DNA of 43,443 nucleotides. Source: Eubacteriales bacterium. GTDB taxonomy: Bacteria > Bacillota > Clostridia > Oscillospirales > CAG-272. The DNA is taken from assembly GCA_045632465.1 (NCBI GenBank), contig JAZQWS010000344.1:1-43443 (forward strand), in the 5' to 3' direction. The notes below the pieces were generated by a model. The model saw only the letters and a program-made list of their open reading frames with translations, searched no databases and was not told the DNA's origin. How positions within the stretch are numbered: the stretch's first letter is position 1; the number at the start of each line of letters is the position of its first letter. Below, piece after piece: positions 4,165 through 42,159 of this stretch. The translations under genes were made by a program, and so were the position numbers.

Positions 4165-4239
4165 GGAGCTGCTACCCAGATTCGAACTGGGGACCTCATC
4201 CTTACCAAGGATGTGCTCTACCAACTGAGCCATAGCAGC
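4164..4239 (-). tRNA. tRNA-Thr (anticodon GGU), CCA encoded
   Basis: The reverse complement folds as a perfect cloverleaf: acceptor GCTGCTA/TAGCAGC, D stem GCTC/GAGC, anticodon stem CATCC/GGATG with loop TTGGTAA (anticodon GGT), T stem CCCAG/CTGGG with loop TTCGAAT, discriminator T, then CCA. 76 nt. Confidence 0.95.
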
Positions 4240-15239: not shown

Positions 15240-15291
15240 TTTCTCATAATAAGAACGGGGCTGTCGCATTTAGGCATAACCGAATAAAAAA

Positions 15292-15327
15292 CGGCAGAAG
15301 CATTGTTGAAAAACAGTGTTTCTGCCG
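15292..15327 (+). terminator. probable terminator hairpin after PFOR (weak U-tract)
   Basis: About 16-bp stem cggcagaagcattgtt-gaaa-aacagtgtttctgccg. The tail ctgctttatgc is T-poor, hence moderate confidence. Confidence 0.45.
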
Positions 15328-15484
15328 CTGCTTTATGCAAATCAAGGGAATTAAGGTTGAAAACCTACGGTTTTCTCCATTCAATTAAAGTTTTTTATTC
15401 TATTTCCGTTTCCTCGCTCATCGTACCTTTGTACGATTATCGCTCGTTAGCCGAAAATTTCTGCTCTAAATCCGTTCGCCCCGA

Positions 15485-15510
15485 GGCTACCGCAAAATTT
15501 TGCGGTAGCC
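15485..15510. repeat. perfect 26-bp palindrome
   Basis: GGCTACCGCAAAATTTTGCGGTAGCC is its own reverse complement. It lies about 50 nt upstream of the apbE start. Confidence 0.9.
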
Positions 15511-19408: not shown

Positions 19409-20782
19409 ATGAAGCTGCTTGCAAGGCGCACGGATCTCGATCTGACGAATGGGCCGATACTCAAAACAATCATTCTTTTTTCGTTCCCTTTAATTTTGGC
19501 CAATTTCGTTTCAATGATGTTTGATGCGATGGATTTGATGGTCCTTTCCTGGTTTGCTGACGGATACGAGGTTGCCTCGGTTGGAACCACCTCCTCGCTG
19601 ACGCATCTGCTTGAGAATCTTGCAACGGGACTTTGCGTTGGCGTGAATATCATTCTTGCCCGCCTTTTAGGTGAGGGCGACCATGCGCGCGCGCAAAAGG
19701 TGATTTCCACCGCCATTATAACGAGCGTTGGTCTCGGTGCCGTTATTGCTGTGATCGGAAGCTTCATTGCCCGCCCCTTCCTTGTTATGACGGATTGCCC
19801 CGCCGAATGCATCGATCATGCAACGATCTATGCCACGTTTTATTTTCTCGGCATGCCGCTTCTCCTTCTTTACCATTATGCCGCGGCGATCATCCGTGTT
19901 GGAGGAGACAGTCAGCGCCCGCTCTATTATATGCTGATCGCCGGCGTTTGCAACCTTGCGCTGAACACGGTTTTTTGCGCCATTCTTTCTCAGAAGGTAG
20001 TGGCGGTTGCTTTGGCAACGGCGCTTTCCAAGGGGCTTGCCGCATTTTTGGCTCTGCGCCATCTTGTGCGCGGAAGCGGAAGATGCCGCTGGGAGATCAA
20101 GCAAACGCGCTTTGATTTTGCTTCCTTCAAAACGATGATTTTATACGGACTTCCCACGGCGATCACCTCCTGCCTTTATCCGATTGCCAATATGCAGATT
20201 GCCGCCGGTATCAATTCCTACGGTGCGGATTTCGTTGCGGGAAGCACCGCGAGCCAGCAGTATGAGAAAATGCTCGGCTCTTACAACGTGGGCCTCGCCG
20301 CCACAGCGCTCACGATGATGGGGCAGAATCTCGGCGCAAAAAAGCCGAAGCGCGTATATCGCGTGTTCTTTGATATTTTGATTCTTGAGCTGTGTCTTGT
20401 GCTGGGAACGGCAACGATCGTGTATTCCTTCGGAGAATCGCTGATCCCTATTTTCGCGGGCAACAATGCCGCCGCGATCGAGGCCGGAATGCTTCGCATG
20501 AGAATTATGCTCTTCTCGTATTGTATTTTGCACACGCCCTTGGGGCCTGCCATTCAGGCCTTCGGCTATCCGACTTTGCAAACGGCGATCAACACGGCCG
20601 GAATTCTTGGCGTGCGAACGCTTTGGATGCAGATCGTGTACGGCCGCCTCGTTCCCCGAACGGCAGAAATGGTATTTATGAGCTTCCCGGTATCCTACAT
20701 ATTCACAACGGCTTGCTATGCAGTCTGCGTGCTGGTGATCCTTCTTCGCTATCGCAAGGGAAAATATAAGAAAAAGATTTAG
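19409..20782 (+). CDS. MATE-family transporter, paralog 2
   Basis: 457 aa. MKLLARRTDLDLTNGPIL, YEVASVG, DCPAEC, IRVGGDSQRPLYYM, GQNLGAKKPKRVY, IQAFGYPTLQT and a C-terminal LLRYRKGKYKKKI. Confidence 0.9.
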   Translation: MKLLARRTDLDLTNGPILKTIILFSFPLILANFVSMMFDAMDLMVLSWFADGYEVASVGTTSSLTHLLENLATGLCVGVNIILARLLGEGDHARAQKVISTAIITSVGLGAVIAVIGSFIARPFLVMTDCPAECIDHATIYATFYFLGMPLLLLYHYAAAIIRVGGDSQRPLYYMLIAGVCNLALNTVFCAILSQKVVAVALATALSKGLAAFLALRHLVRGSGRCRWEIKQTRFDFASFKTMILYGLPTAITSCLYPIANMQIAAGINSYGADFVAGSTASQQYEKMLGSYNVGLAATALTMMGQNLGAKKPKRVYRVFFDILILELCLVLGTATIVYSFGESLIPIFAGNNAAAIEAGMLRMRIMLFSYCILHTPLGPAIQAFGYPTLQTAINTAGILGVRTLWMQIVYGRLVPRTAEMVFMSFPVSYIFTTACYAVCVLVILLRYRKGKYKKKI

Positions 20783-20809
20783 CTTTTGTGCCCAAAGAGG
20801 AGATAAAAA

Positions 20810-22183
20810 ATGAAAATTTTAGCAAAAAGAAAAAATTTGGATATCACAAGCGGGCCGCTCTTTTCCTCCATTGTTGCCTTTGCGATTCCTCTGATTTTAT
20901 CGAATATTTTTTCTGCCTTTTACCATTCTGCGGATATGGCGGTGCTGGCAGCCTTTGCAAAGGGGAATGAGGTTGCCTCGGTTGGCTCAACCACCGCTCT
21001 CACGGCTTTGTTTCTGAACACGGCCATCGGCCTTGGTACAGGTGCAAACATCATCCTTTCCCGTTGCTTCGGAAGCGGGGAAAAGGATCGGGCGCAAACC
21101 GTTATCTCCACCTCGATTCTGACGGGACTCTTCCTTGGCTTGATCCTTGCCGTGGCAGGCGCGATTCTCGTTCCTTATTTCCTTGCATGGACGAATTGCC
21201 CCGCCGATTGCCTTAACGATGCAACGCTCTATGCCGTGGTTTATATTCTCGGCATGCCCTTTTATCTCGTTTATAGCTATGCTGCCGCCGTGATTCGCGT
21301 GTCGGGTGATAGCGAGCATCCGCTGTATTACATGATCGCGGGCGGACTCACCAACGTTGTTTTGAACGTTCTGCTTTGCTTGATTTTGCCCTATAAGGTG
21401 CTTGCGGTTGCGATCGCAACGCTCGTTTCCAATGCGCTGAGCGCGTTTCTTTGTCTGCGCCGCCTTTCTGTCGTGGAGGGCGTGGCGCATTGGGATGTAA
21501 GGAAAACGCGATTTGATTTCCCAACCTTCGGGAAAATGCTGCAGTACGGTTTGCCCGCGGCGCTGACGACCGTGCTTTATCCGATCTGTAATCTGCAGAT
21601 CCAGACGGGCATCAATTCGTACGGTGCATCCGTTATCGCGGGAAATACGGCAAGCTCGCAGTACGAGAGCTTTGTGAACAATGCCTGCGCCGCATTGACG
21701 GCAACGGCACTGCCGTTTATCGGCCAAAACCTCGGCGCCAAGAAGCCCAAGCGCGTGTATCGATCCTTTTTTTATACACAGGCGATAGAGTCTGCGATCG
21801 CGATCGTTTTCCCAATTTTGTTCTTCCTTCTCGGAAAGCGGCTTTTGCCGATCTTTGCGGGGGATGATCCCGCCGCGATCAGCGCAGGACTTGTGCGTAT
21901 GCGATACGTGCTTCTCGCATATCCAATCGCAATGAATGTTTTCGGAACCACCATTCAGGCCTTCGGTTATCCGACGGTGCAGACCTGTATCAACCTTGCG
22001 GGTATTTTCGGGTTCCGAACCCTCTGGATGCAGTTTGTGTACGGAAAGATCCTTCCTGCCACGCTTGAAAATCTTTATATTTGCTTCCCACTCTCTATTG
22101 TTTTGACGCACGCGGTCAACGGAGCGATGGTTGCGGTTCTGCTCCTGCGCTACCGCAAAGGCAAGTATAAGGAAAAGCTTTGA
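20810..22183 (+). CDS. MATE-family transporter, paralog 3
   Basis: 457 aa, 27 nt after paralog 2, with GAGGAG as its SD. Same block structure (NEVASVG, NCPADC, IRVSGDSEHPLYYM, GQNLGAKKPKRVY, LLRYRKGKYKEKL). Confidence 0.9.
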   Translation: MKILAKRKNLDITSGPLFSSIVAFAIPLILSNIFSAFYHSADMAVLAAFAKGNEVASVGSTTALTALFLNTAIGLGTGANIILSRCFGSGEKDRAQTVISTSILTGLFLGLILAVAGAILVPYFLAWTNCPADCLNDATLYAVVYILGMPFYLVYSYAAAVIRVSGDSEHPLYYMIAGGLTNVVLNVLLCLILPYKVLAVAIATLVSNALSAFLCLRRLSVVEGVAHWDVRKTRFDFPTFGKMLQYGLPAALTTVLYPICNLQIQTGINSYGASVIAGNTASSQYESFVNNACAALTATALPFIGQNLGAKKPKRVYRSFFYTQAIESAIAIVFPILFFLLGKRLLPIFAGDDPAAISAGLVRMRYVLLAYPIAMNVFGTTIQAFGYPTVQTCINLAGIFGFRTLWMQFVYGKILPATLENLYICFPLSIVLTHAVNGAMVAVLLLRYRKGKYKEKL

Positions 22184-22214
22184 TTTTTTTCACAATTGAA
22201 GAAAGGATCTTTGT

Positions 22215-23585
22215 ATGCTTCTGAAACGAAAAAAGGATCTTGATTTAACGAACGGGCCGCTTTTTTCTTCCTTGATCGCCTATGCGCTTCCGCTTTTGGC
22301 CTCGAATCTGATCGGAACGCTCTTTGGCGCGATGGATCTGATGGCGCTCTCCTATTTCTCCGTGGGAAACGAGGTTGCCGCGGTTGGTGCCAGCTCGGCG
22401 CTCACCTCTTTGTTTTTGAATTTAGCCTACGGTCTGACCGCGGGCATCACCGTGATCTTAGCGAGAAGCTTCGGCGAAAAGGATAAGGATCGCGTGCAAA
22501 GCGTAATCTCCACGGCGATCATAACTGCCGTGGTTGTCGGTGTGGCATTTGCGGTGATCGGCGCGCTTCTCGTTCCGTCCTTTCTCCGATGGACGAATTG
22601 CCCCGCAGATTGCGTTGCGGATGCAACGCTCTATGCCGTGATCTATATCTTCGGCATGCCGTTTTATCTTCTCTACGGTTATCTTGGCGCGGTGATCCGC
22701 GTTTCGGGTGACAGTGAGCGTCCGCTTTACTATATGCTTGCGGGCGGCGTGACGAATATCGTTCTGAACTTCGTTCTTTGCATCGTTTTGCCTTATAAGG
22801 TGCTTGCGGTTGCGATCGCAACGCTTGCCTCCAACATTCTCGGTGCATTTCTTTGCCTGCGCCGCCTGATAAAAGCGGAGGGGATCGAGCACTGGGACGT
22901 GAAGAAAACGCGCTTTGATCTTTCCGCCTTTGGAAGCATTTTGCGCTATGGCATTCCCGTTGCGCTGACGAACGTTTTGTTTCCCATTGCCAATCTGCAG
23001 ATCCAATCCGCGATCAATGCCTTTGGCTCTTCCGCCGTTGCGGGCAACACGGCTTGTATGCAATTTGAAAATCTGATGAGCTCCTGTGCGATGGCCTTTA
23101 TATCTGCGGCAATGGCCTTTATGGGGCAGAATATCGGCGCGGGGAAGCCAAAACGCGTATTTCGCTCCTTCTTTTATATGCAGGGAATGGCAACGGCGGT
23201 GAGCGTTACCTCGGTGCTCATCATCGCTCTCTTCGGCAAGCATCTTTTGCCGCTCTTTGCCGGAGATGATCCTGCCGCGGTGGCTTTCGGCCTCGTGCGT
23301 GTGCGCGTTGTCGTTCCTGCCTTTATCTTTTCCCTCACGGTGTTTGCAACTACGGTTCAGGCATTCGGTTATCCCATGCTGCAAACTCTGGCGGAGGTGA
23401 TCGGAATCTTTGGCTTGCGAACGGTTTGGCTTCAGCTTATTTACGGAAAGCTCGTTCCGGCAACGCCCGAGATGCTCTATCTTTGCTATCCGATTTCGAT
23501 GGTGACAACTGCGCTCTTCAACGGAAGCATTGCCGCCGCGCTCCTGCTATGCTATCGCAAGGGAAAATATAAGAAAAAACTTTGA
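22215..23585 (+). CDS. MATE-family transporter, paralog 4
   Basis: 456 aa, 31 nt after paralog 3. NEVAAVG, NCPADC, IRVSGDSERPLYYM, GQNIGAGKPKRVF, CYRKGKYKKKL. Confidence 0.9.
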   Translation: MLLKRKKDLDLTNGPLFSSLIAYALPLLASNLIGTLFGAMDLMALSYFSVGNEVAAVGASSALTSLFLNLAYGLTAGITVILARSFGEKDKDRVQSVISTAIITAVVVGVAFAVIGALLVPSFLRWTNCPADCVADATLYAVIYIFGMPFYLLYGYLGAVIRVSGDSERPLYYMLAGGVTNIVLNFVLCIVLPYKVLAVAIATLASNILGAFLCLRRLIKAEGIEHWDVKKTRFDLSAFGSILRYGIPVALTNVLFPIANLQIQSAINAFGSSAVAGNTACMQFENLMSSCAMAFISAAMAFMGQNIGAGKPKRVFRSFFYMQGMATAVSVTSVLIIALFGKHLLPLFAGDDPAAVAFGLVRVRVVVPAFIFSLTVFATTVQAFGYPMLQTLAEVIGIFGLRTVWLQLIYGKLVPATPEMLYLCYPISMVTTALFNGSIAAALLLCYRKGKYKKKL

Positions 23586-23613
23586 TTTTTCGTTTTTATG
23601 AAAGGACCTTTGT

Positions 23614-24978
23614 ATGTTTTTGCAACGAAAAAAAGATCTTGATATAACGGGCGGGCCGCTTCTTAAAACCATCATTCTGTTTGCTTTGCCGATCGTGCTC
23701 TCCAATATGGTGACAACGCTTTTCAATGCCGCGGATATGATGGTGCTTTCCTGGTTTGCGCAAGGTAACGAGATTGCCTCCGTTGGAGCAACGAGCAGCG
23801 TTATTTCTCTTTTCACGCAGTTTGCCATCGGCCTTTGCACGGGCGTGAACATCGTGCTTGCGCGCTTGATCGGTCAGGGGGATGATAGAAACACGCACCG
23901 CGTGCTTTCAACGGCGATCCTCGCCGCCGCCGTTATGGGGCTCTTTCTTGCGATCGTTGGAGGCCTTTTCGGACGTTCGGTTCTTTCTTGGATGAATTGC
24001 CCCGATGAATGCCTTTCGGATGCCTCTTTGTATTTAATTGTTTACTTTTTGGGCGCTCCGTTTCTTCTTTTGAACCAATATGCCTCTGCCATCATCCGCG
24101 TTTCGGGTGATAGCGAACGCCCTCTGTATTATATGTTGATCTCCGGCGCAACGAACGTTGTGCTGAACGCGATTCTTTGTCTGATCCTGCCTCGCAAGGT
24201 GCTTGCGGTTGCGCTGGCCACGCTTGCTTCGCAGGCCGTTGGTGCGTTTTTGTGCCTTCGCCGCCTTGTCATGGCAGAGGGAATTTGCCACTGGGACTTT
24301 AAAGCAACGCGTTTTGATCTTGGTGCGATGAAAAAGATTCTTATGTATGGCTTGCCTTCCGCTTTGACAACGGCGCTCTACCCGATCACCAATCTGCAGG
24401 TGCAGTCTGCGATCAATTCCTTCGGCCCTGCCGCCATCGCGGGAAACACCGCCGCCATTCAGTATGAAACCATCGTCGGCACGGCGGGAGGTGCATTTCA
24501 GACCTCGGCCCTCACCTTCGTCGGCCAAAATCTCGGCGCGAGGAAAAACGAGCGCGTGTACCGTTCCTTCTTTTACTGTCTGTTCTCAGGTCTTACAGTC
24601 ACCGCAACGCTGGCCGTCAGCATTTATATTTTCCGCCAGCCGTTGCTTTCCATTTTCGTTGCGGGGGATGCGGCATCCATCGCGCAGGGCGCGGTGCGCA
24701 TGAAATACGTCATGCTCTTTTACATTTTGACCATCAACCCGATGGCCTCCACCATTCAGGCCTTTGGCCATCCAACGCTGCAAACCAGCATCAACGTCGG
24801 CAGCGTGCTCGGACTGAGAACGCTCTGGATGCAGATTGTGTATCCCTTGAATCCAACGCTGGACGTCTTGTATTTCTGTTACCCGTTGACATACATTGTC
24901 AATGCGGCGATTTACGCGCCGATCGTTGTTGTTCTTTTCCTCCGTCTGCGAAACGGAAAATACAAATATCAAATTTGA
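23614..24978 (+). CDS. MATE-family transporter, paralog 5
   Basis: 454 aa, 28 nt after paralog 4. NEIASVG, NCPDEC, IRVSGDSERPLYYM, GQNLGARKNERVY. Confidence 0.9.
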   Translation: MFLQRKKDLDITGGPLLKTIILFALPIVLSNMVTTLFNAADMMVLSWFAQGNEIASVGATSSVISLFTQFAIGLCTGVNIVLARLIGQGDDRNTHRVLSTAILAAAVMGLFLAIVGGLFGRSVLSWMNCPDECLSDASLYLIVYFLGAPFLLLNQYASAIIRVSGDSERPLYYMLISGATNVVLNAILCLILPRKVLAVALATLASQAVGAFLCLRRLVMAEGICHWDFKATRFDLGAMKKILMYGLPSALTTALYPITNLQVQSAINSFGPAAIAGNTAAIQYETIVGTAGGAFQTSALTFVGQNLGARKNERVYRSFFYCLFSGLTVTATLAVSIYIFRQPLLSIFVAGDAASIAQGAVRMKYVMLFYILTINPMASTIQAFGHPTLQTSINVGSVLGLRTLWMQIVYPLNPTLDVLYFCYPLTYIVNAAIYAPIVVVLFLRLRNGKYKYQI

Positions 24979-37393: not shown

Positions 37394-38275
37394 CTATTCG
37401 GTGAAATTTTGCTCTCTGTACTCGCTTGGCGTGCATCCGAAGGCCTTGCGAAATGCAATATGAAAGCCGGAGGGTGAGGCGTAGCCTACCTCAGCTCCGA
37501 TCATGTCAATGGGCAAGTTCGTTGTGATCAGAAGCCCCTTGGCATAATGTAAGCGGAGCTCGGAAAGCTTCTTTCGGAAGCTCATGCCGAAGATGCTGCG
37601 CACAACGCGGCTCGTTTGCCGAATGGAGAGTCCGAGCAATTCGGCAAGATCCGCTTCGCAGATCGGCTCGCTTATATGCTGTTGCATTAAAATTTCGATT
37701 TTATTGTAGCGTGCGTTTGCATCGTCACTTTTTTGAAGAGAGACGTTCTCCTGCGGATTCATTACGGCGCCGAGACGGCGGTAAAGAAGAAGGAAGAGCT
37801 CGCAAAGATAGGCGCGGCAGAGCGGCGCGGAGGCGGCCTGATTTGAAAGCGTTTCCTCCTTGATTTTTTGCAGAAGCAGAATCAGATCCGCCGCATCCGA
37901 AAGGTGTGTCAGCGTGTGCAGGGTGGCGAAACGCGAGAAAAGATCCTCGCAGTCCTCCTTTTGGCGCGCATGGCAGGAAAATCGAAGTGTCAGCCGGCGG
38001 GTACCCATCTTTGCATCAACGAGGTGATAAATGTCCGGGGGAATCAGGCATATACCCCCTCGGGTCACTCTGATCTGCTCGGCGTTTGAGGTTTGAAAAA
38101 TAAGCTCCCCTTCGGTAACCGCCTGCATCTCAAAAACGGGATGGCTGTGAAAGGGTGTGGCGCGGATCTCGTCTTCACGAATGGAACCGTCTAAGGTAAT
38201 CGCCGCGGCGAGGTTTTCAAGCTCGAAGGAATAGGAGGAATAAAACGCGTGCTCGTATTCGCATTTTTGTGTCAT
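37394..38275 (-). CDS. AraC/XylS-family transcriptional regulator (cupin N-domain plus HTH)
   Basis: C-terminal LMQQHISEPICEADLAELLGLSIRQTSRVVRSIFGMSFRKKLSELRLHYAKGLL...IDMIGAEVGYASPSGFHIAFRKAFGCTPSEYR. GAGGAGG SD. Confidence 0.88.
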   Translation of the reverse strand: MTQKCEYEHAFYSSYSFELENLAAAITLDGSIREDEIRATPFHSHPVFEMQAVTEGELIFQTSNAEQIRVTRGGICLIPPDIYHLVDAKMGTRRLTLRFSCHARQKEDCEDLFSRFATLHTLTHLSDAADLILLLQKIKEETLSNQAASAPLCRAYLCELFLLLYRRLGAVMNPQENVSLQKSDDANARYNKIEILMQQHISEPICEADLAELLGLSIRQTSRVVRSIFGMSFRKKLSELRLHYAKGLLITTNLPIDMIGAEVGYASPSGFHIAFRKAFGCTPSEYREQNFTE

Positions 38276-38305: not shown

Positions 38306-39817
38306 TTATCTTTCCTTAATATGTAATGTTGGGTTTACAATAGAGTCGCAAATCCGCACTTCTGTCGAGCGCATCTCGAGAAGTCGCATGCCCATGTTCT
38401 CGATGATGTTGCGGGGCGGAAGGGGAAGCGTTTTGAATTCTTTTGCGTTGATCTGCTTGGATTTTGAAACGATGGAGATGTATCTGTCGTAGATCGTGGA
38501 ATTCAGAAGCGCAAAGAGTCCGAAGAGAAGTCTTGCGCAGATCTCGCCGCCCTTTTCCTTCGTGTCGATAAAGTTGAGCTTGTTATGCGTGCTGACGAAG
38601 CGGTAGGCGGGAAGGCGCGAGGACATATAGATGCCCGCGTTCACGAATCTCTCGTCTCTCTTGGCGGGAACGCGCTTGATCAGGATCATATTCTTGTTGG
38701 GCTGGAAGAGCGTTTTGGAGACGGGCGCGATATATTGCTTGGCAACGGCGGCAGGGAAATGTACCATGCCCTTTTCGATCGAGGCGGGGCGCAGAAGCGG
38801 GATCGTTCCCTTCACGGGATCGTTGAAAAGCATGCCGCCGCATCGGTTGTCCAGAACGAGACCGGTGTGCATCTTGAGACCGAGGCTATCCAGCGTTTCG
38901 GGGAAGTCCGAAATATAGCGAACGATGTTGGCATCCTCGGCGCTCTTCGGAAGCGTCAGCCCGCGGCCCTCCTTGTCCACCACGAAATCGTAAGAAAGAA
39001 GAGGAAGCGCGTTGGTTTTCGCGCCGTGGTCGGTCGAGGTATAGATCTGCACGTTTTCGGGCGCATCGCCCTTGCGCATCGCGAGAATGCATTCCTTCTT
39101 GAGCGGAACGGCGCGGCGCTCGTTTTTCTGTTTTCCTATAAAGAGATGCACCGATTGGAGCGGCATTTCTCCGAAAAGCGAGAGGCGGAAGGGCTTCTGC
39201 TCGGTGGCGGATGCAATGGTGGTCGGCATCATGATAACGAGCTGGCCGTCCTCCTCAAGGTGTCTTTTCGCCGTTTCGGCAAAGAGGAGCGCGCTGTGCG
39301 CCTTCACGGTGCTGATGCCGCCGATGGCCTTCGCCTCCTCCGATCCCTTTGCGTAAAGCTCCTTGGGGGGATTGCAGATGATATAATCAAAGGTGTCCTC
39401 CACGCGCTTGAAAAAATGCATCGTGTAGTGCTCCTTGGATTCGGTGATATAATTCTCTTCGTAAACGGTGATGAAAAGATGCACGTCATAGTCATGGCGG
39501 CACTTCTTGCGGATTCTCTCGAGGTTATCCTTCAACATGGGAAGGAAGGTCTCGTCGTTTTCGTAGCAGGTGAGAAAGATCTGCTTGCATCTGGGAGCTT
39601 CCTTGCAAATGCGCTCCACCAGCGCGGCCGAAAGAATACCCGTGCCCGCACCGGGATCCAGGATCGTGCAAGCGTTTTTCTCCGTATGCAAAGAAAACAT
39701 GGAAGCCATCACGCGCGCCGTGTCCTTTTTCGTAAAAAGTCTGCCAAGGCGAACGTTTTCGCTATCCACCCTCGCGCGCACAAGCTTTGCCGTGTTTCTG
39801 CAAGCCAAATTCAGCAT
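38306..39817 (-). CDS. gamma-class N6-adenine DNA methyltransferase (Eco57I/TaqI-like) with a C-terminal target-recognition-like domain; no partner endonuclease
   Basis: Motif I ILDPGAGTGIL (complement of about 39638-39658). Motif IV position reads DYIICNPPKELY (NPPK at the complement of 39362-39373) rather than NPP[YFW]. About 250-aa C-terminal domain. GGAGG SD. Confidence 0.7.
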   Translation of the reverse strand: MLNLACRNTAKLVRARVDSENVRLGRLFTKKDTARVMASMFSLHTEKNACTILDPGAGTGILSAALVERICKEAPRCKQIFLTCYENDETFLPMLKDNLERIRKKCRHDYDVHLFITVYEENYITESKEHYTMHFFKRVEDTFDYIICNPPKELYAKGSEEAKAIGGISTVKAHSALLFAETAKRHLEEDGQLVIMMPTTIASATEQKPFRLSLFGEMPLQSVHLFIGKQKNERRAVPLKKECILAMRKGDAPENVQIYTSTDHGAKTNALPLLSYDFVVDKEGRGLTLPKSAEDANIVRYISDFPETLDSLGLKMHTGLVLDNRCGGMLFNDPVKGTIPLLRPASIEKGMVHFPAAVAKQYIAPVSKTLFQPNKNMILIKRVPAKRDERFVNAGIYMSSRLPAYRFVSTHNKLNFIDTKEKGGEICARLLFGLFALLNSTIYDRYISIVSKSKQINAKEFKTLPLPPRNIIENMGMRLLEMRSTEVRICDSIVNPTLHIKER

Positions 39818-39915: not shown

Positions 39916-39944
39916 ATTGCAAAAGGCGATCGGAAATGCTATAC
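39916..39944 (+). promoter_or_regulatory. sigma-A type promoter for the SbcD-like gene
   Basis: TTGCAA (39916-39921), 17 nt, TGcTATACT (TATACT at 39939-39944). This puts the track start at 39936 inside the promoter, which supports ATG 40002. Confidence 0.6.
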
Positions 39945-40001
39945 TATAAGATAAAGAAAGAAATTCCCGACAAAGCGCGGGAGAAAAGGACGGGTAGATC
40001 T

Positions 40002-41156
40002 ATGGCCGAAAACAGTAAAAACACGCATTTGCGGTTTCTGCATTGCTCGGATATTCATCTGGACACGCCCACGGTGGGATTAACGGCGGAGAAGTGTGAC
40101 GAGAGGCGCAGAGAGCTGCGCTCCTCCTTCATGCGCATGATGCAGTACGTCAGAGATCGCGGTGTCAACGTTGTGCTGATCAGCGGCGATCTTTTTGATA
40201 ATCAGTACGCCACCAATACCACGGCGGAGGTTTTGATTCGCGAATTCCGCAATTGCTCGGAAACGGTGTTTATCATCTCCCCCGGCCGATCGGATTATTA
40301 TGAAAATAACCCGATCTATACGTCGGGTCGCCTTCCCTCCAACGTATATGTTTTCTCGAAGGACACGCTCTCTCGCTTCGATTTCGAGCAGTTTAACGTA
40401 ACGGTGTACGGCTGGGCCTTCATGGGCGAGAAGATGAACGAAAGTCCGCTCTATGAAAAAACGGTGGATGATGCCTCGAGAATCAACCTCGTTTGCGGAT
40501 ACGGTGACCTCGGCGGAAGCATTGATTCGGATCTTTGCCCCCTTTCCGAAAACGAGCTGAAAAAGTTCGGCGCGGATTATTGTGCGCTTGGCTCTCGCCA
40601 TGAGGCGGGCGATTTTATGAAGATCGGCGATAGCGTGATTTACAGCTATTGCGGCTCTCTCGAATGCACGGGCTTTGAAAACACAGGCATCGGCGGCGCA
40701 AATCTCATCGTTGTGGATTATCAGGACGGCGAGCTTTCCATCGATGTGAAGAAGCTCTCCTTTGGTCGCCTCCGCTTTGTGAATGAAACGATCGATATCA
40801 CCGGGGTAAACACCGGTAGCGAGATCATTAACCGCATCACCAAGGTGATCAGCGAGAAGAAGTACGGTATGGAAACCGCCCTGCGCGTGCAGTTGGTCGG
40901 CGAGATCGATCCGCGCTTCCTCGTTCCGAAAAATCTGGAGTGCGATGCCTTTGGTCTTTATTATTTCGATCTTGTGGATAAAACCATGCCTCTTTTCGGC
41001 GCGGAGCATTTTGAGCGCGATATGAATGCGGCAGGCGAGGTTTATCGCAAGCTTCTCCCCCTTCTCAGATCCGAAAACGAGGATGAGCGCATGACGGCGG
41101 CGAAGGCTTTCCGTGTAGCGTTGGCGGCTTTGGAAAATCGCGAAGCCGAAATATAG
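40002..41156 (+). CDS. calcineurin-like metallophosphoesterase, SbcD/YhaO-type DNA repair exonuclease
   Basis: LRFLHCSDIHLD (motif I, DxH), VLISGDLFD (motif II, GD) and later GSRHE. About 384 aa. Confidence 0.8.
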   Translation: MAENSKNTHLRFLHCSDIHLDTPTVGLTAEKCDERRRELRSSFMRMMQYVRDRGVNVVLISGDLFDNQYATNTTAEVLIREFRNCSETVFIISPGRSDYYENNPIYTSGRLPSNVYVFSKDTLSRFDFEQFNVTVYGWAFMGEKMNESPLYEKTVDDASRINLVCGYGDLGGSIDSDLCPLSENELKKFGADYCALGSRHEAGDFMKIGDSVIYSYCGSLECTGFENTGIGGANLIVVDYQDGELSIDVKKLSFGRLRFVNETIDITGVNTGSEIINRITKVISEKKYGMETALRVQLVGEIDPRFLVPKNLECDAFGLYYFDLVDKTMPLFGAEHFERDMNAAGEVYRKLLPLLRSENEDERMTAAKAFRVALAALENREAEI

Positions 41157-41406
41157 GGTGCGGCTTGAAAATTTTGGCGCAAAGGCTTGCTTTCCGCATC
41201 GACGTACTCTTGTACGCCTTCTGCGAAAATCAAGCCTTATCATCCAAAATTTTCTTCGCCGCGCAGACGGTGCTTAGGTAAGGGTGCGGCTTGAAAATTT
41301 GGCGATATTGCCCGATTTCCCCCCTCGCGGTATTCGTATACCGCTTCGGAGAAAAAGAAAGCGTCTCATCCGAAATTTTCTGCACCGGGCAGACGGTACT
41401 AAAGGA
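41155..41406 (+). repeat. two tandem copies of a 126-nt structured element (conserved flanks, variable hairpin core)
   Basis: Unit 1 is 41155-41280 and unit 2 is 41281-41406. Shared 5' flank: AGGGTGCGGCTTGAAAATTT. Shared 3' flank: CATCC(A/G)AAATTTTCT...GCAGACGGT(G/A)CT. The cores differ, but each holds a 7-bp/4-nt-loop hairpin at the same offset (41201-41218 and 41327-41344). Confidence 0.85.
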
Positions 41407-41475
41407 ATAGATTCGGAGGCTGATGCAGATTGCCTGCGCGGCCTCTGATTTGTGTAAAACGAAAAGGAAAAAAGT

Positions 41476-42159
41476 ATGATCAAGCACGTATTTTTGGATT
41501 TGGACGATACGATTTTGGATTTTCACAAGGCCGAGGCGGTGGCTTTGGAGAAAACGCTTCGCCATTTCTCGATCCCCGTAACAGAGGAGAATAAGGCGCT
41601 TTACAGCCGCATCAACAAGGGATGCTGGGAGGCCTTGGAGCGCGGGGAGATCACGAGAGCCGAGCTTCGTCTTTTGCGCTTTGCGCGCTTTTTTGAGCAG
41701 ATCGGCGCGGCAAATGCCGAGCTTGCGCCTGCCGTGTATGAAAACTTCCTTTCGCAGGGGCATTATTTCCTGCCCGGTGCGGAGGCGATGTTAGAGTCTC
41801 TTTTCGGAAAATTTGCGCTTTATCTTGCGACCAACGGCATCGCTGCCGTGCAGGCAGGGCGCGTGGCTTCCGCGGGAATCGGGAAGTATTTCAAGGAGCG
41901 CTTCGTTTCCGAGGAGGTTGGATATAATAAGCCCTCTGTCGCGTATTTTGAGGCTTGCTTTGCAAGGATCGAGGGATTTAGCCGTGAGGAGGCTGTGATC
42001 GTCGGCGATAGTCTGACGTCGGATATCAAGGGCGGTCTTGACGCGGGCATAAAAACCGTTTGGTTTAACCCCAAGGGGCTTGCCCATCCCGAAAATATTT
42101 GCCCCGACGTGGAGATCTCCGATCTTGGCGCGCTGGCTTCCGTTTTAGAGAAAATGTGA
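41476..42159 (+). CDS. HAD-superfamily hydrolase, YjjG-like noncanonical pyrimidine nucleotidase
   Basis: Motif I FLDLDDTILDF, a cap-domain helical insert, LATNG, K-P, and motif IV VGDSLTSDIKGG. Confidence 0.75.
   Translation: MIKHVFLDLDDTILDFHKAEAVALEKTLRHFSIPVTEENKALYSRINKGCWEALERGEITRAELRLLRFARFFEQIGAANAELAPAVYENFLSQGHYFLPGAEAMLESLFGKFALYLATNGIAAVQAGRVASAGIGKYFKERFVSEEVGYNKPSVAYFEACFARIEGFSREEAVIVGDSLTSDIKGGLDAGIKTVWFNPKGLAHPENICPDVEISDLGALASVLEKM

Follow-up and report, generated by a model that had tools for sequence, protein, structure and literature searches.

What is the two-unit repeat that follows the SbcD-like gene of an Eubacteriales bacterium (GTDB lineage CAG-272): a dedicated functional RNA, or part of a dispersed element? 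It lies at positions 41155-41406 of contig JAZQWS010000344.1 (assembly GCA_045632465.1), whose 43,443 nucleotides are the window analysed here. A first-pass annotation, made from the letters alone, had seen in it either a functional RNA or a mobile element with structure, of the MITE (miniature inverted-repeat transposable element) or REP (repetitive extragenic palindromic) type. Our analysis supports this proposal, and its dispersed-repeat half is the one that fits better. We hold with moderate confidence that the two units are tandem copies of a hairpin module, called D, from an interspersed repeat of modular build, similar in kind to BOX, ERIC and MITE elements, and this alternative is better supported than a dedicated functional RNA.

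The 20-mer AGGGTGCGGCTTGAAAATTT occurred exactly twice in the window (chance expectation, 0.02), at 41155 and at 41281, that is, with a period of 126 nt. The array is made of two 126-nt units, 41155-41280 and 41281-41406, the first of which begins on the AG of the TAG stop codon of the SbcD-like open reading frame (ORF; 39936-41156):

41155-41280, minus strand: unit 1, type A, with a long minus-strand hairpin at 41160-41262 and inverted repeats I1 and I4.
41281-41406, minus strand: unit 2, type B', with a long minus-strand hairpin at 41293-41380 that is reliant on several G-U pairs.

The period starting from the SbcD-like stop codon, the conserved 3' flanks, the pairing of the flanks with each other, the extra GCGGC/GCCGC pairing of unit 1 and, at one and the same offset in both tips, a 4-nt loop closed by a 7-bp stem were all as the first-pass annotation had described them; the flank pairing, GAAAATTTTGG/CCAAAATTTTC, is 11/11 complementary. 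Two of its statements had to be revised. The cores, said to be unrelated in sequence, are ~70% identical in an ungapped register over 91 nt, and the structured part, taken to be a short core stem, is a hairpin of ~100 nt that takes in the whole unit. On the minus strand the tip of unit 1 reads lower stem, AGAA loop, GGCGUAC-AAGA-GUACGUC, GA, lower stem, and that of unit 2 reads CC-GAA-GCGGUAU-ACGA-AUACCGC-GA-GG. At least two stem positions had been claimed to change on both sides; there are in fact three such pairs (2, 3 and 7), GGCGUAC/GUACGUC in unit 1 becoming GCGGUAU/AUACCGC in unit 2, and the flanking GAA/GA loop is retained. A 20-nt linker, GCAGACGGTGCTTAGGTA, follows the unit 1 hairpin in plus coordinates. 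Tandem Repeats Finder did not report the pair because the units are too diverged.

We looked for the hairpin outside this locus. An 18-mer of the 5' flank was useless as a search key, with chance matches only, in unrelated phyla. In contrast, the apical 20-mer TCGACGTACYCTYGTACGCC (plus strand) gave at least 119 exact matches, so that the further copies named by the first-pass annotation as a check are indeed numerous. The carriers among the matches listed are metagenome-assembled genomes (MAGs) of Clostridia, Eubacteriales, Acutalibacteraceae, Oscillospiraceae and Ruminococcus, together with eight Bifidobacterium isolates, B. primatium, B. simiarum, B. margollesii and B. tibiigranuli among them; there are several matches per MAG, a number of them at true contig ends. 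In every listed match a long hairpin is capped by the 20-mer, and the lower stems of this hairpin vary and covary. We call P the sense in which the tip 20-mer is written on the plus strand, and R the reverse strand, which is the minus strand at the target. On the R strand the motif runs lower stem, GAA (or GUGA/GAUA), GGCGUAC, RAGG, GUACGUC, GA, lower stem. An A stands immediately 5' of the 7-bp stem in 93 of 101 copies. Pair 2 of this stem is GU in 84 copies, CG in 9, GC in 3 and UA in 2, meaning that the G-U pair is retained in 84/98; pair 3 is CG in 85 and UA in 5, and pair 7 is CG in 90 and UA in 7. The 27-nt tip is letter-for-letter identical in Firmicutes and Actinobacteria.

A covariance model built on the apical motif, R1, gave 124 matches in the 721 kb of fetched loci, including ~20 extra ones outside the exact-pattern anchors. 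These amount to ~1 per 36 kb, from which we estimate a copy number of tens per genome. R1 had no match in 116 kb of unrelated control loci and none at the empty sites described below, and it recognised both target units:

41191-41229, minus strand: apical motif of unit 1 (R1, 47.1 bits, E 1.3e-13).
41317-41355, minus strand: apical motif of unit 2 (R1, 40.7 bits, E 1.7e-11).

The element had no match in Rfam 15, whether at gathering thresholds (window and 18 loci) or in E-value mode (region and 9 loci), where only chance-level microRNA and small RNA (sRNA) matches appeared, all with E > 0.1; the initial remark that no known riboswitch or sRNA family is involved thus holds. A literature search found no account of this repeat family. 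A tRNA gene (4167-4239, minus strand) is the sole gathering-threshold Rfam match in the window.

It seems to be an abundant family, carried by many uncultured Oscillospirales of the rumen and hindgut and by some Bifidobacterium. Four Bifidobacterium loci (L042, L061, L078 and L136) carry tandem arrays of the tip-bearing hairpin, whose inner loops are conserved and peculiar to them; these arrays are bare and, like the target, begin either at the stop codon of the preceding gene or within it. A unit of the Bifidobacterium type was also seen in a contig labelled Parabacteroides merdae (L133, CAVFKU010000004.1), which may be bin contamination. Copies are intergenic. When both flanking genes were called, their arrangement was convergent in 39 cases, tandem in 18 and 15, and divergent in 6; the convergent excess points to a strong enrichment at gene 3' ends, and the 18 versus 15 tandem cases to no orientation preference. 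Most often no more than 10-20 nt separate the start of the element from a stop codon. The 358 flanking ORFs fell into 310 clusters of unrelated housekeeping genes, the few recurrent ones being aspartyl-tRNA synthetase, leucine-rich repeat (LRR)/dockerin proteins and AraC regulators. A cis-regulatory element of the 5' untranslated region (UTR), such as a riboswitch or leader, was rejected in view of the location at gene 3' ends, the convergent enrichment and the unrelated neighbours.

Which strand carries the structure? Folded as RNA, both units were more stable on the minus strand (for unit 1, compare -61.4 kcal/mol, z -9.1, with -49.1 kcal/mol, z -4.6, on the plus strand; for unit 2, -43.3 kcal/mol, z -2.7, with -35.5 kcal/mol, z -0.1). 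With DNA parameters, that is, as single-stranded DNA (ssDNA), the minus strand of unit 1 gave -36.3 (z -8.1), and unit 2 gave -19.2 with a z of about -1.0 on either strand. Unit 2 has no DNA fold because its stem relies on G-U pairs, and this failure is an argument for RNA. Likewise, what is an A-C mismatch in the tip stem of unit 1 on the plus strand is a G-U pair on the minus strand. In the family, the R strand had the better fold in 100 of 103 non-redundant copies, with a mean gain of 10.4 kcal/mol. This preference is restricted to the D hairpin (82/85), since the 140 nt to its left favour the P strand (57 vs 28) and the distant flanks are neutral. In one subfamily, G1, the D hairpin is a three-way junction with a side arm that covaries and is variable in length, and the copies hold 68 G-U pairs against 7 A-C mismatches. 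A transition in a stem is equally likely to leave the G-U on either strand, the A-C then falling on the opposite one; the observed asymmetry, which affects differing positions in each subfamily, therefore indicates selection on one single strand. From these predicted folds, the hairpin would be selected at the single-strand level, probably as RNA.

Covariation was studied on an alignment of nine units, taken on the minus strand from the target locus and from four relatives (L017-L020), with an RNAalifold consensus. This consensus has 40 pairs, of which 20 show double compensatory changes, compared with 1-4 in slid registers. Paired cells reached 92% (77% after shuffling and 42-52% in slid registers), and the covariation score 0.465 (0.205 and 0.07-0.13, respectively). 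Many of the pairs are U-G on the minus strand and would be A-C mismatches if read on the plus strand. The first-pass annotation had named covariation among further aligned units as a check, and it is strong, half of the pairs being doubly changed. Both marks of a structured RNA, compensatory pairs above controls and G-U pairs on one strand, are thus found. Hairpin-templated repair, it should be said, can also give DNA palindromes matched changes.

The four relatives are MAGs recovered from the guts of ruminants and other animals, with an SbcD-like protein that shares 90-93% identity with that of the window. Right after the stop codon L017 and L019 each have a single similar unit, L018 has three and L020 has two and a half; in these and in the target, the units have cores of two alternating types, A and B. 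At the strain level, ten metagenome contigs encode an exactly identical HAD protein downstream, and their upstream regions vary. Three of them have two units as in the window, with differences in the unit 2 stem; in two the unit 2 hairpin has been excised between the basal inverted repeats; in three unit 2 is degenerate and its tip is gone; of the remainder, one has a truncated unit 2 and one is too short to contain the array. Unit 1 is unchanged in all the contigs that reach it. As unit 2 may be intact, excised, truncated or degenerate among strains, it must be under weak constraint within the species.

A conserved small ORF on the minus strand was ruled out: the ATG within GGATGA is present in both target units and missing from the type B units of L018 and L019, and the variable arm of G1 shifts the frame, so that no reading frame is conserved in the family. 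A 387-aa minus-strand ORF (40080-41243), antisense to the SbcD-like gene and with its ATG within the conserved GGATGA of unit 1, is probably spurious.

These data bear on the simplest rival, namely that the array is a locally evolved cis element of the SbcD-like/HAD operon (a terminator, an attenuator or a 3'-UTR stabiliser) duplicated in place, with no dispersed family behind it. The immediate surroundings are as follows:

39936-41156, plus strand: upstream gene, Metallophos SbcD/YhaO-like (calcineurin-like phosphoesterase), 406 aa (Pfam PF00149; ORF list).
41415-41454, plus strand: terminator-like hairpin GGAGGC..GCCTC, then TGATTTGTG, in the interval between the array and the HAD gene (by eye from the sequence).
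41476-42159, plus strand: downstream gene, HAD-family hydrolase, 227 aa (Pfam PF13419, PF00702).

The gene after the HAD hydrolase encodes a YnbB-like pyridoxal phosphate (PLP) enzyme. The array thus occupies the 3' UTR of the SbcD-like gene, before the terminator-like hairpin and the HAD gene, and unit 1 gives a stable hairpin on the plus strand (-49.1 kcal/mol, z -4.6), as such a cis element would have it. The hairpin at 41415-41454 was not called by a simple terminator scan; it is kept with changes in L017, and clearer plus-strand terminators are found at this place in L018-L020. However, a purely local origin is contradicted by dispersal, the same tip and architecture being present at more than 100 unrelated loci; moreover, the better fold is on the opposite strand, the hairpins have no U-tract, a more distant relative (L021, 63% identity) carries a plain terminator in place of the units, and strains dispense with unit 2. 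We consider this explanation extremely improbable, and it is unlikely that the element serves specifically to regulate the SbcD-like gene or the HAD gene. An intrinsic terminator was also rejected for the array itself, given that the scan found none in 41155-41406 and that no U-rich sequence follows either hairpin on either strand.

The family also has larger members, and the window contains one of them:

15256-15483, plus strand: full-size family member, 228 nt, between a PFOR-like gene and an ApbE gene (Pfam); defined by sequence, folds and inverted repeat I2.
15256-15273, plus strand: left inverted repeat (IRL) of this element, an 18-nt arm 78% complementary to the right one (IRR).
15292-15327, plus strand: hairpin B (fold).
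15355-15378, plus strand: T1 hairpin and U-run (fold).
15410-15448, minus strand: apical motif of hairpin D, with a variant tip (R1, 19.0 bits, E 3e-4, filters off).
15466-15483, plus strand: IRR, forming the inverted repeat with IRL.
15485-15510, plus strand: resident terminator after the element (sequence, folds).

The tip of this copy reads GAUA-AUCGUAC-AAAG-GUACGAU-GA, its stem being altered by compensatory substitutions. Full-size copies of this architecture are 225-245 nt long (range among the copies measured, 208-246 nt) and have imperfect inverted-repeat ends that start with GGGG. Their order in the P sense is left end, AT-rich stretch (often with hairpin B), T1 hairpin and U-run, D, right end; one or two terminator-like hairpins fold best when read inward from the left end, and D when read inward from the right end. 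In G1 the left end is GGGGATGTAAAAAAAGCGCAGACCG and the right end reads GGGGATAGGAAAAAAAGATGCAGAACGG as its reverse complement; in a second subfamily, G2, they are GGGGCTGYNNCATTTAGGCAKAACC and GGGGCTCGCTTGATTTAGG, respectively, and a left end GGGGCTGCTTCATTTAGG recurs with GGGGCTCGCTTGATTTAGG at fixed offsets. Dozens of copies thus show, at constant offsets, the matched pair of ends proper to their subfamily. Where left and right differ, the difference is conserved and not compensated, and we therefore read the ends as DNA-level inverted repeats.

Full-size members sit between a stop codon and a resident terminator. The 15256-15483 element is missing at the orthologous sites of two related MAGs, L152 (623-700) and L153 (2843-2900), which retain the stop codon and the terminator; there, the terminator, GGGGCTGCCGC...GCGGCAGCCC, comes 22-28 nt after the stop codon. 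The sites differ by a clean insertion or deletion of the element. In its left end, the outermost ~17 nt are similar to the left arm of the L152/L153 terminator together with its loop, and the flanks of the window copy form a diverged direct repeat of ~11-17 nt that resembles the terminator arm. Stems of the form GGGGCTG...CAGCCCC are common in terminators here (L152 650-695, L153 2863-2895, window 15485-15510 and many loci) and closely resemble the outer parts of the repeat ends; they may be targets, solo-end relics or a coincidence. The target units have a short basal inverted repeat only, and we regard the target array as a reduced form of the element, consisting of D, this short basal repeat as a stem and the 20-nt linker, duplicated head to tail. 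Of the features by which a MITE is recognised, the family has small, non-coding, multi-copy members and presence/absence at orthologous sites; a partner transposon with matching ends was not found among the 358 flanking ORFs or in a plasmid search with the left end.

Several observations weigh against a mobile repeat and have to be set beside this evidence. The local-alignment scores of the inverted repeats do not exceed those of shuffles of this AT-rich DNA, so the case for the ends rests on their fixed-offset recurrence, and the Bifidobacterium arrays and the target array have no GGGG ends at all. A 5-bp target-site duplication is barely visible in 16 G1 copies: on average 2.19 of the 5 positions match, compared with 1.62 after shuffling (p ~0.02), in flanks that are A-rich, and 2 of these copies have perfect 5-mer flanking repeats. 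No autonomous partner or transposase was found, the search covering the 358 flanking ORFs. No promoter is recognisable on the favoured strand at the target, nor was a terminator called there. Finally, copies of the same genome differ and covary, which points to a long-term structural constraint and not to a recent burst, and the identity of the tip across Firmicutes and Actinobacteria exceeds what a passive palindrome needs. The invariant tip, the kept G-U pair and the covariation within genomes do not fit a passive repeat, and they keep an RNA module alive as an alternative.

According to that alternative, which we judge unlikely, the units would be genes or processed modules of a minus-strand structured non-coding RNA, ~100-nt hairpins whose tip binds a conserved protein and whose stems provide specificity or a scaffold, the spread of the repeat being secondary. 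The strand-specific G-U pairs, including that of the tip stem (84/98), agree with it, as do the folding of unit 2 as RNA and not as ssDNA, the G1 three-way junction with its covarying arm of variable length, which is usual in RNA families, and the invariance of the loop-and-stem motif in two phyla. The word depth of the G1 element in metatranscriptome contigs is also far above that of its flanks, but this depth is inflated by copy number and the contigs are strandless; the window locus was not found in the RNA runs searched. The favoured strand, moreover, has neither promoter nor terminator at the target, and one weak minus-strand promoter-like site was seen beside the full-size copy. The D hairpin of full-size copies is enclosed by terminators that face it, and orientation relative to the neighbours is random in tandem contexts (18 vs 15). 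Same-species strains have lost unit 2 or let it decay, and the taxonomic distribution is patchy, all of which counts against such an RNA. A bolder version would make the tip the handle of an RNA-protein system common to gut Clostridia and Bifidobacterium, in which minus-strand hairpins are processed from arrays, the covarying stems supply guide or decoy specificity and the spread of the repeat creates new specificities; this we find quite improbable.

Could the hairpin instead work as ssDNA, on one strand only, either as a substrate of an HUH (Y1) enzyme, like REP/REPIN or IS200/IS605 elements, or as a folded attC-like site? The strand-specific fold tolerates G-T pairs, and the minus strand of unit 1 folds well as ssDNA (z -8.1), but unit 2 has no such fold (z -1.0). 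In an attC site the hairpin has R''/R' boxes (RYYYAAC / GTTRRRY) at its base and a variable tip, and it belongs to a cassette array; here, in contrast, the sequence has no R''/R' boxes, the tip is conserved and the neighbours are housekeeping genes. REP, BIME and REPIN elements are high-copy extragenic palindromes found at gene 3' ends and often in tandem clusters, and REPIN hairpins measure ~100 nt; the present family has the same BIME-like copy number, intergenic sites and clusters. REP sequences are nevertheless defined by a GTAG/GTGG located 0-2 nt 5' of the hairpin (PMC6006769), and the base of the target hairpin has neither on either strand. REP conserve the stem and vary the loop, and this family does the reverse, its conservation being at the tip and not at the base, which is the opposite of attC as well. 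No RAYT, Y1 or integrase gene was found in the 358 neighbouring ORFs, and the ends of the family read as inverted repeats, which are absent from IS200/IS605 elements. Taken together, these points make an ssDNA function very improbable. CRISPR-like, type III antitoxin-like, attC, REP and K-turn readings were likewise set aside, as judged from the sequence, for want of their defining features.

We come back to the modular interspersed repeat, for which known families offer several parallels. ERIC/IRU and Correia (CREE/NEMIS) elements are imperfect palindromes of ~100-150 nt, or are bounded by inverted repeats, in transcribed intergenic DNA, and the long hairpins of their RNA influence how stable the adjoining mRNAs are or how they are processed. 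They differ from the present family by their host phyla and their sequences, and here the conserved part is the tip of the hairpin. SPRITE elements and intrinsic terminators also lie just past stop codons and are enriched between convergent genes, and the T1 and B hairpins of the full-size copies have U-runs; D, however, is not next to a U-tract on either strand, its length far exceeds that of a terminator stem, and its tip sequence is conserved. A further parallel is BOX in Streptococcus pneumoniae, boxA-boxB(n)-boxC, which has inverted-repeat end modules and an internal module variable in tandem number (PMC3049150). BOX elements would fold tightly if transcribed, are over-represented between convergent genes, lack a clear target-site duplication and vary in module number from strain to strain (PMC3049150). 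All these traits have their counterpart here: a small non-coding modular repeat, end modules that read as inverted repeats, an internal hairpin that is absent or in tandem, convergent-gene enrichment, a tight fold, no clear target-site duplication and a strain-variable number of modules. The parallel is one of description, no sequence relation having been seen. The internal hairpin of the present family is ~100 nt long, with covarying stems and a tip invariant in two phyla, its fold is strand-specific, and at the target and in Bifidobacterium arrays of the bare internal module exist without end modules.

A plasmid or phage source was also considered. PLSDB plasmids gave nothing meaningful for the target units, a G1 element or the left end, INPHARED phages nothing for the target units or a G1 element, and IMG/VR (2.9 million viral contigs) one partial match; a phage or plasmid origin and spacer-like matches of the stems were consequently rejected. 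A conceivable likeness of the left end to the ends of Tn3- or IS6-family elements was dropped; the plasmid search with this end gave nothing useful.

Altogether, in the most likely reading the array is repeat DNA of a selfish or weakly domesticated sort and not a locus-specific regulator, and the initial statement that it is functional rather than junk is not established. The first-pass annotation had also overlooked the preference for the minus strand, the extent of the hairpin over the entire unit, the full-size member elsewhere in the window and the instability of the locus from strain to strain. As to how such an element could behave, copies would spread by mobilisation in trans, and arrays would lengthen or shorten through unequal recombination or slippage. 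On transcripts antisense to the SbcD-like gene the hairpin may act as RNA, being a barrier or a processing site, whereas on the plus-strand SbcD-like mRNA the units would form a weaker, moderately stable hairpin in the 3' UTR, the better fold being expected on antisense transcripts only. A putative protein recognition site is made up of the GAA/GA loop, the 7-bp stem including its G-U pair, and the tetraloop rich in purines. The inward-facing structures of the full-size copies suggest that T1 acts on P-sense transcripts coming from the left and D on R-sense transcripts coming from the right, a layout that would suit an element insulating itself from outside transcription and kept after the loss of an internal gene.

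Two other groups of genes in the window may be mentioned. An N6-adenine DNA methyltransferase-like ORF (38306-39817, minus strand), with hits to Eco57I, N6_Mtase and MTS, adjoins an AraC-type regulator (37394-38275, minus strand), and the pair runs divergently from the SbcD-like gene. Four MatE-family (MATE efflux) paralogues of 454-457 aa lie consecutively, head to tail, at 19409-24978 on the plus strand.

Annotating this family would account for part of the intergenic DNA and for some MAG contig breaks in the carriers, and it would prevent these elements from being mistaken for riboswitches or sRNAs. Its 27-nt tip shared by two phyla and its strand-specific RNA-like fold amount to more constraint than a passive palindrome needs, which makes it reasonable to search the family for an RNA-binding factor or a mobilisation mechanism that would be new.

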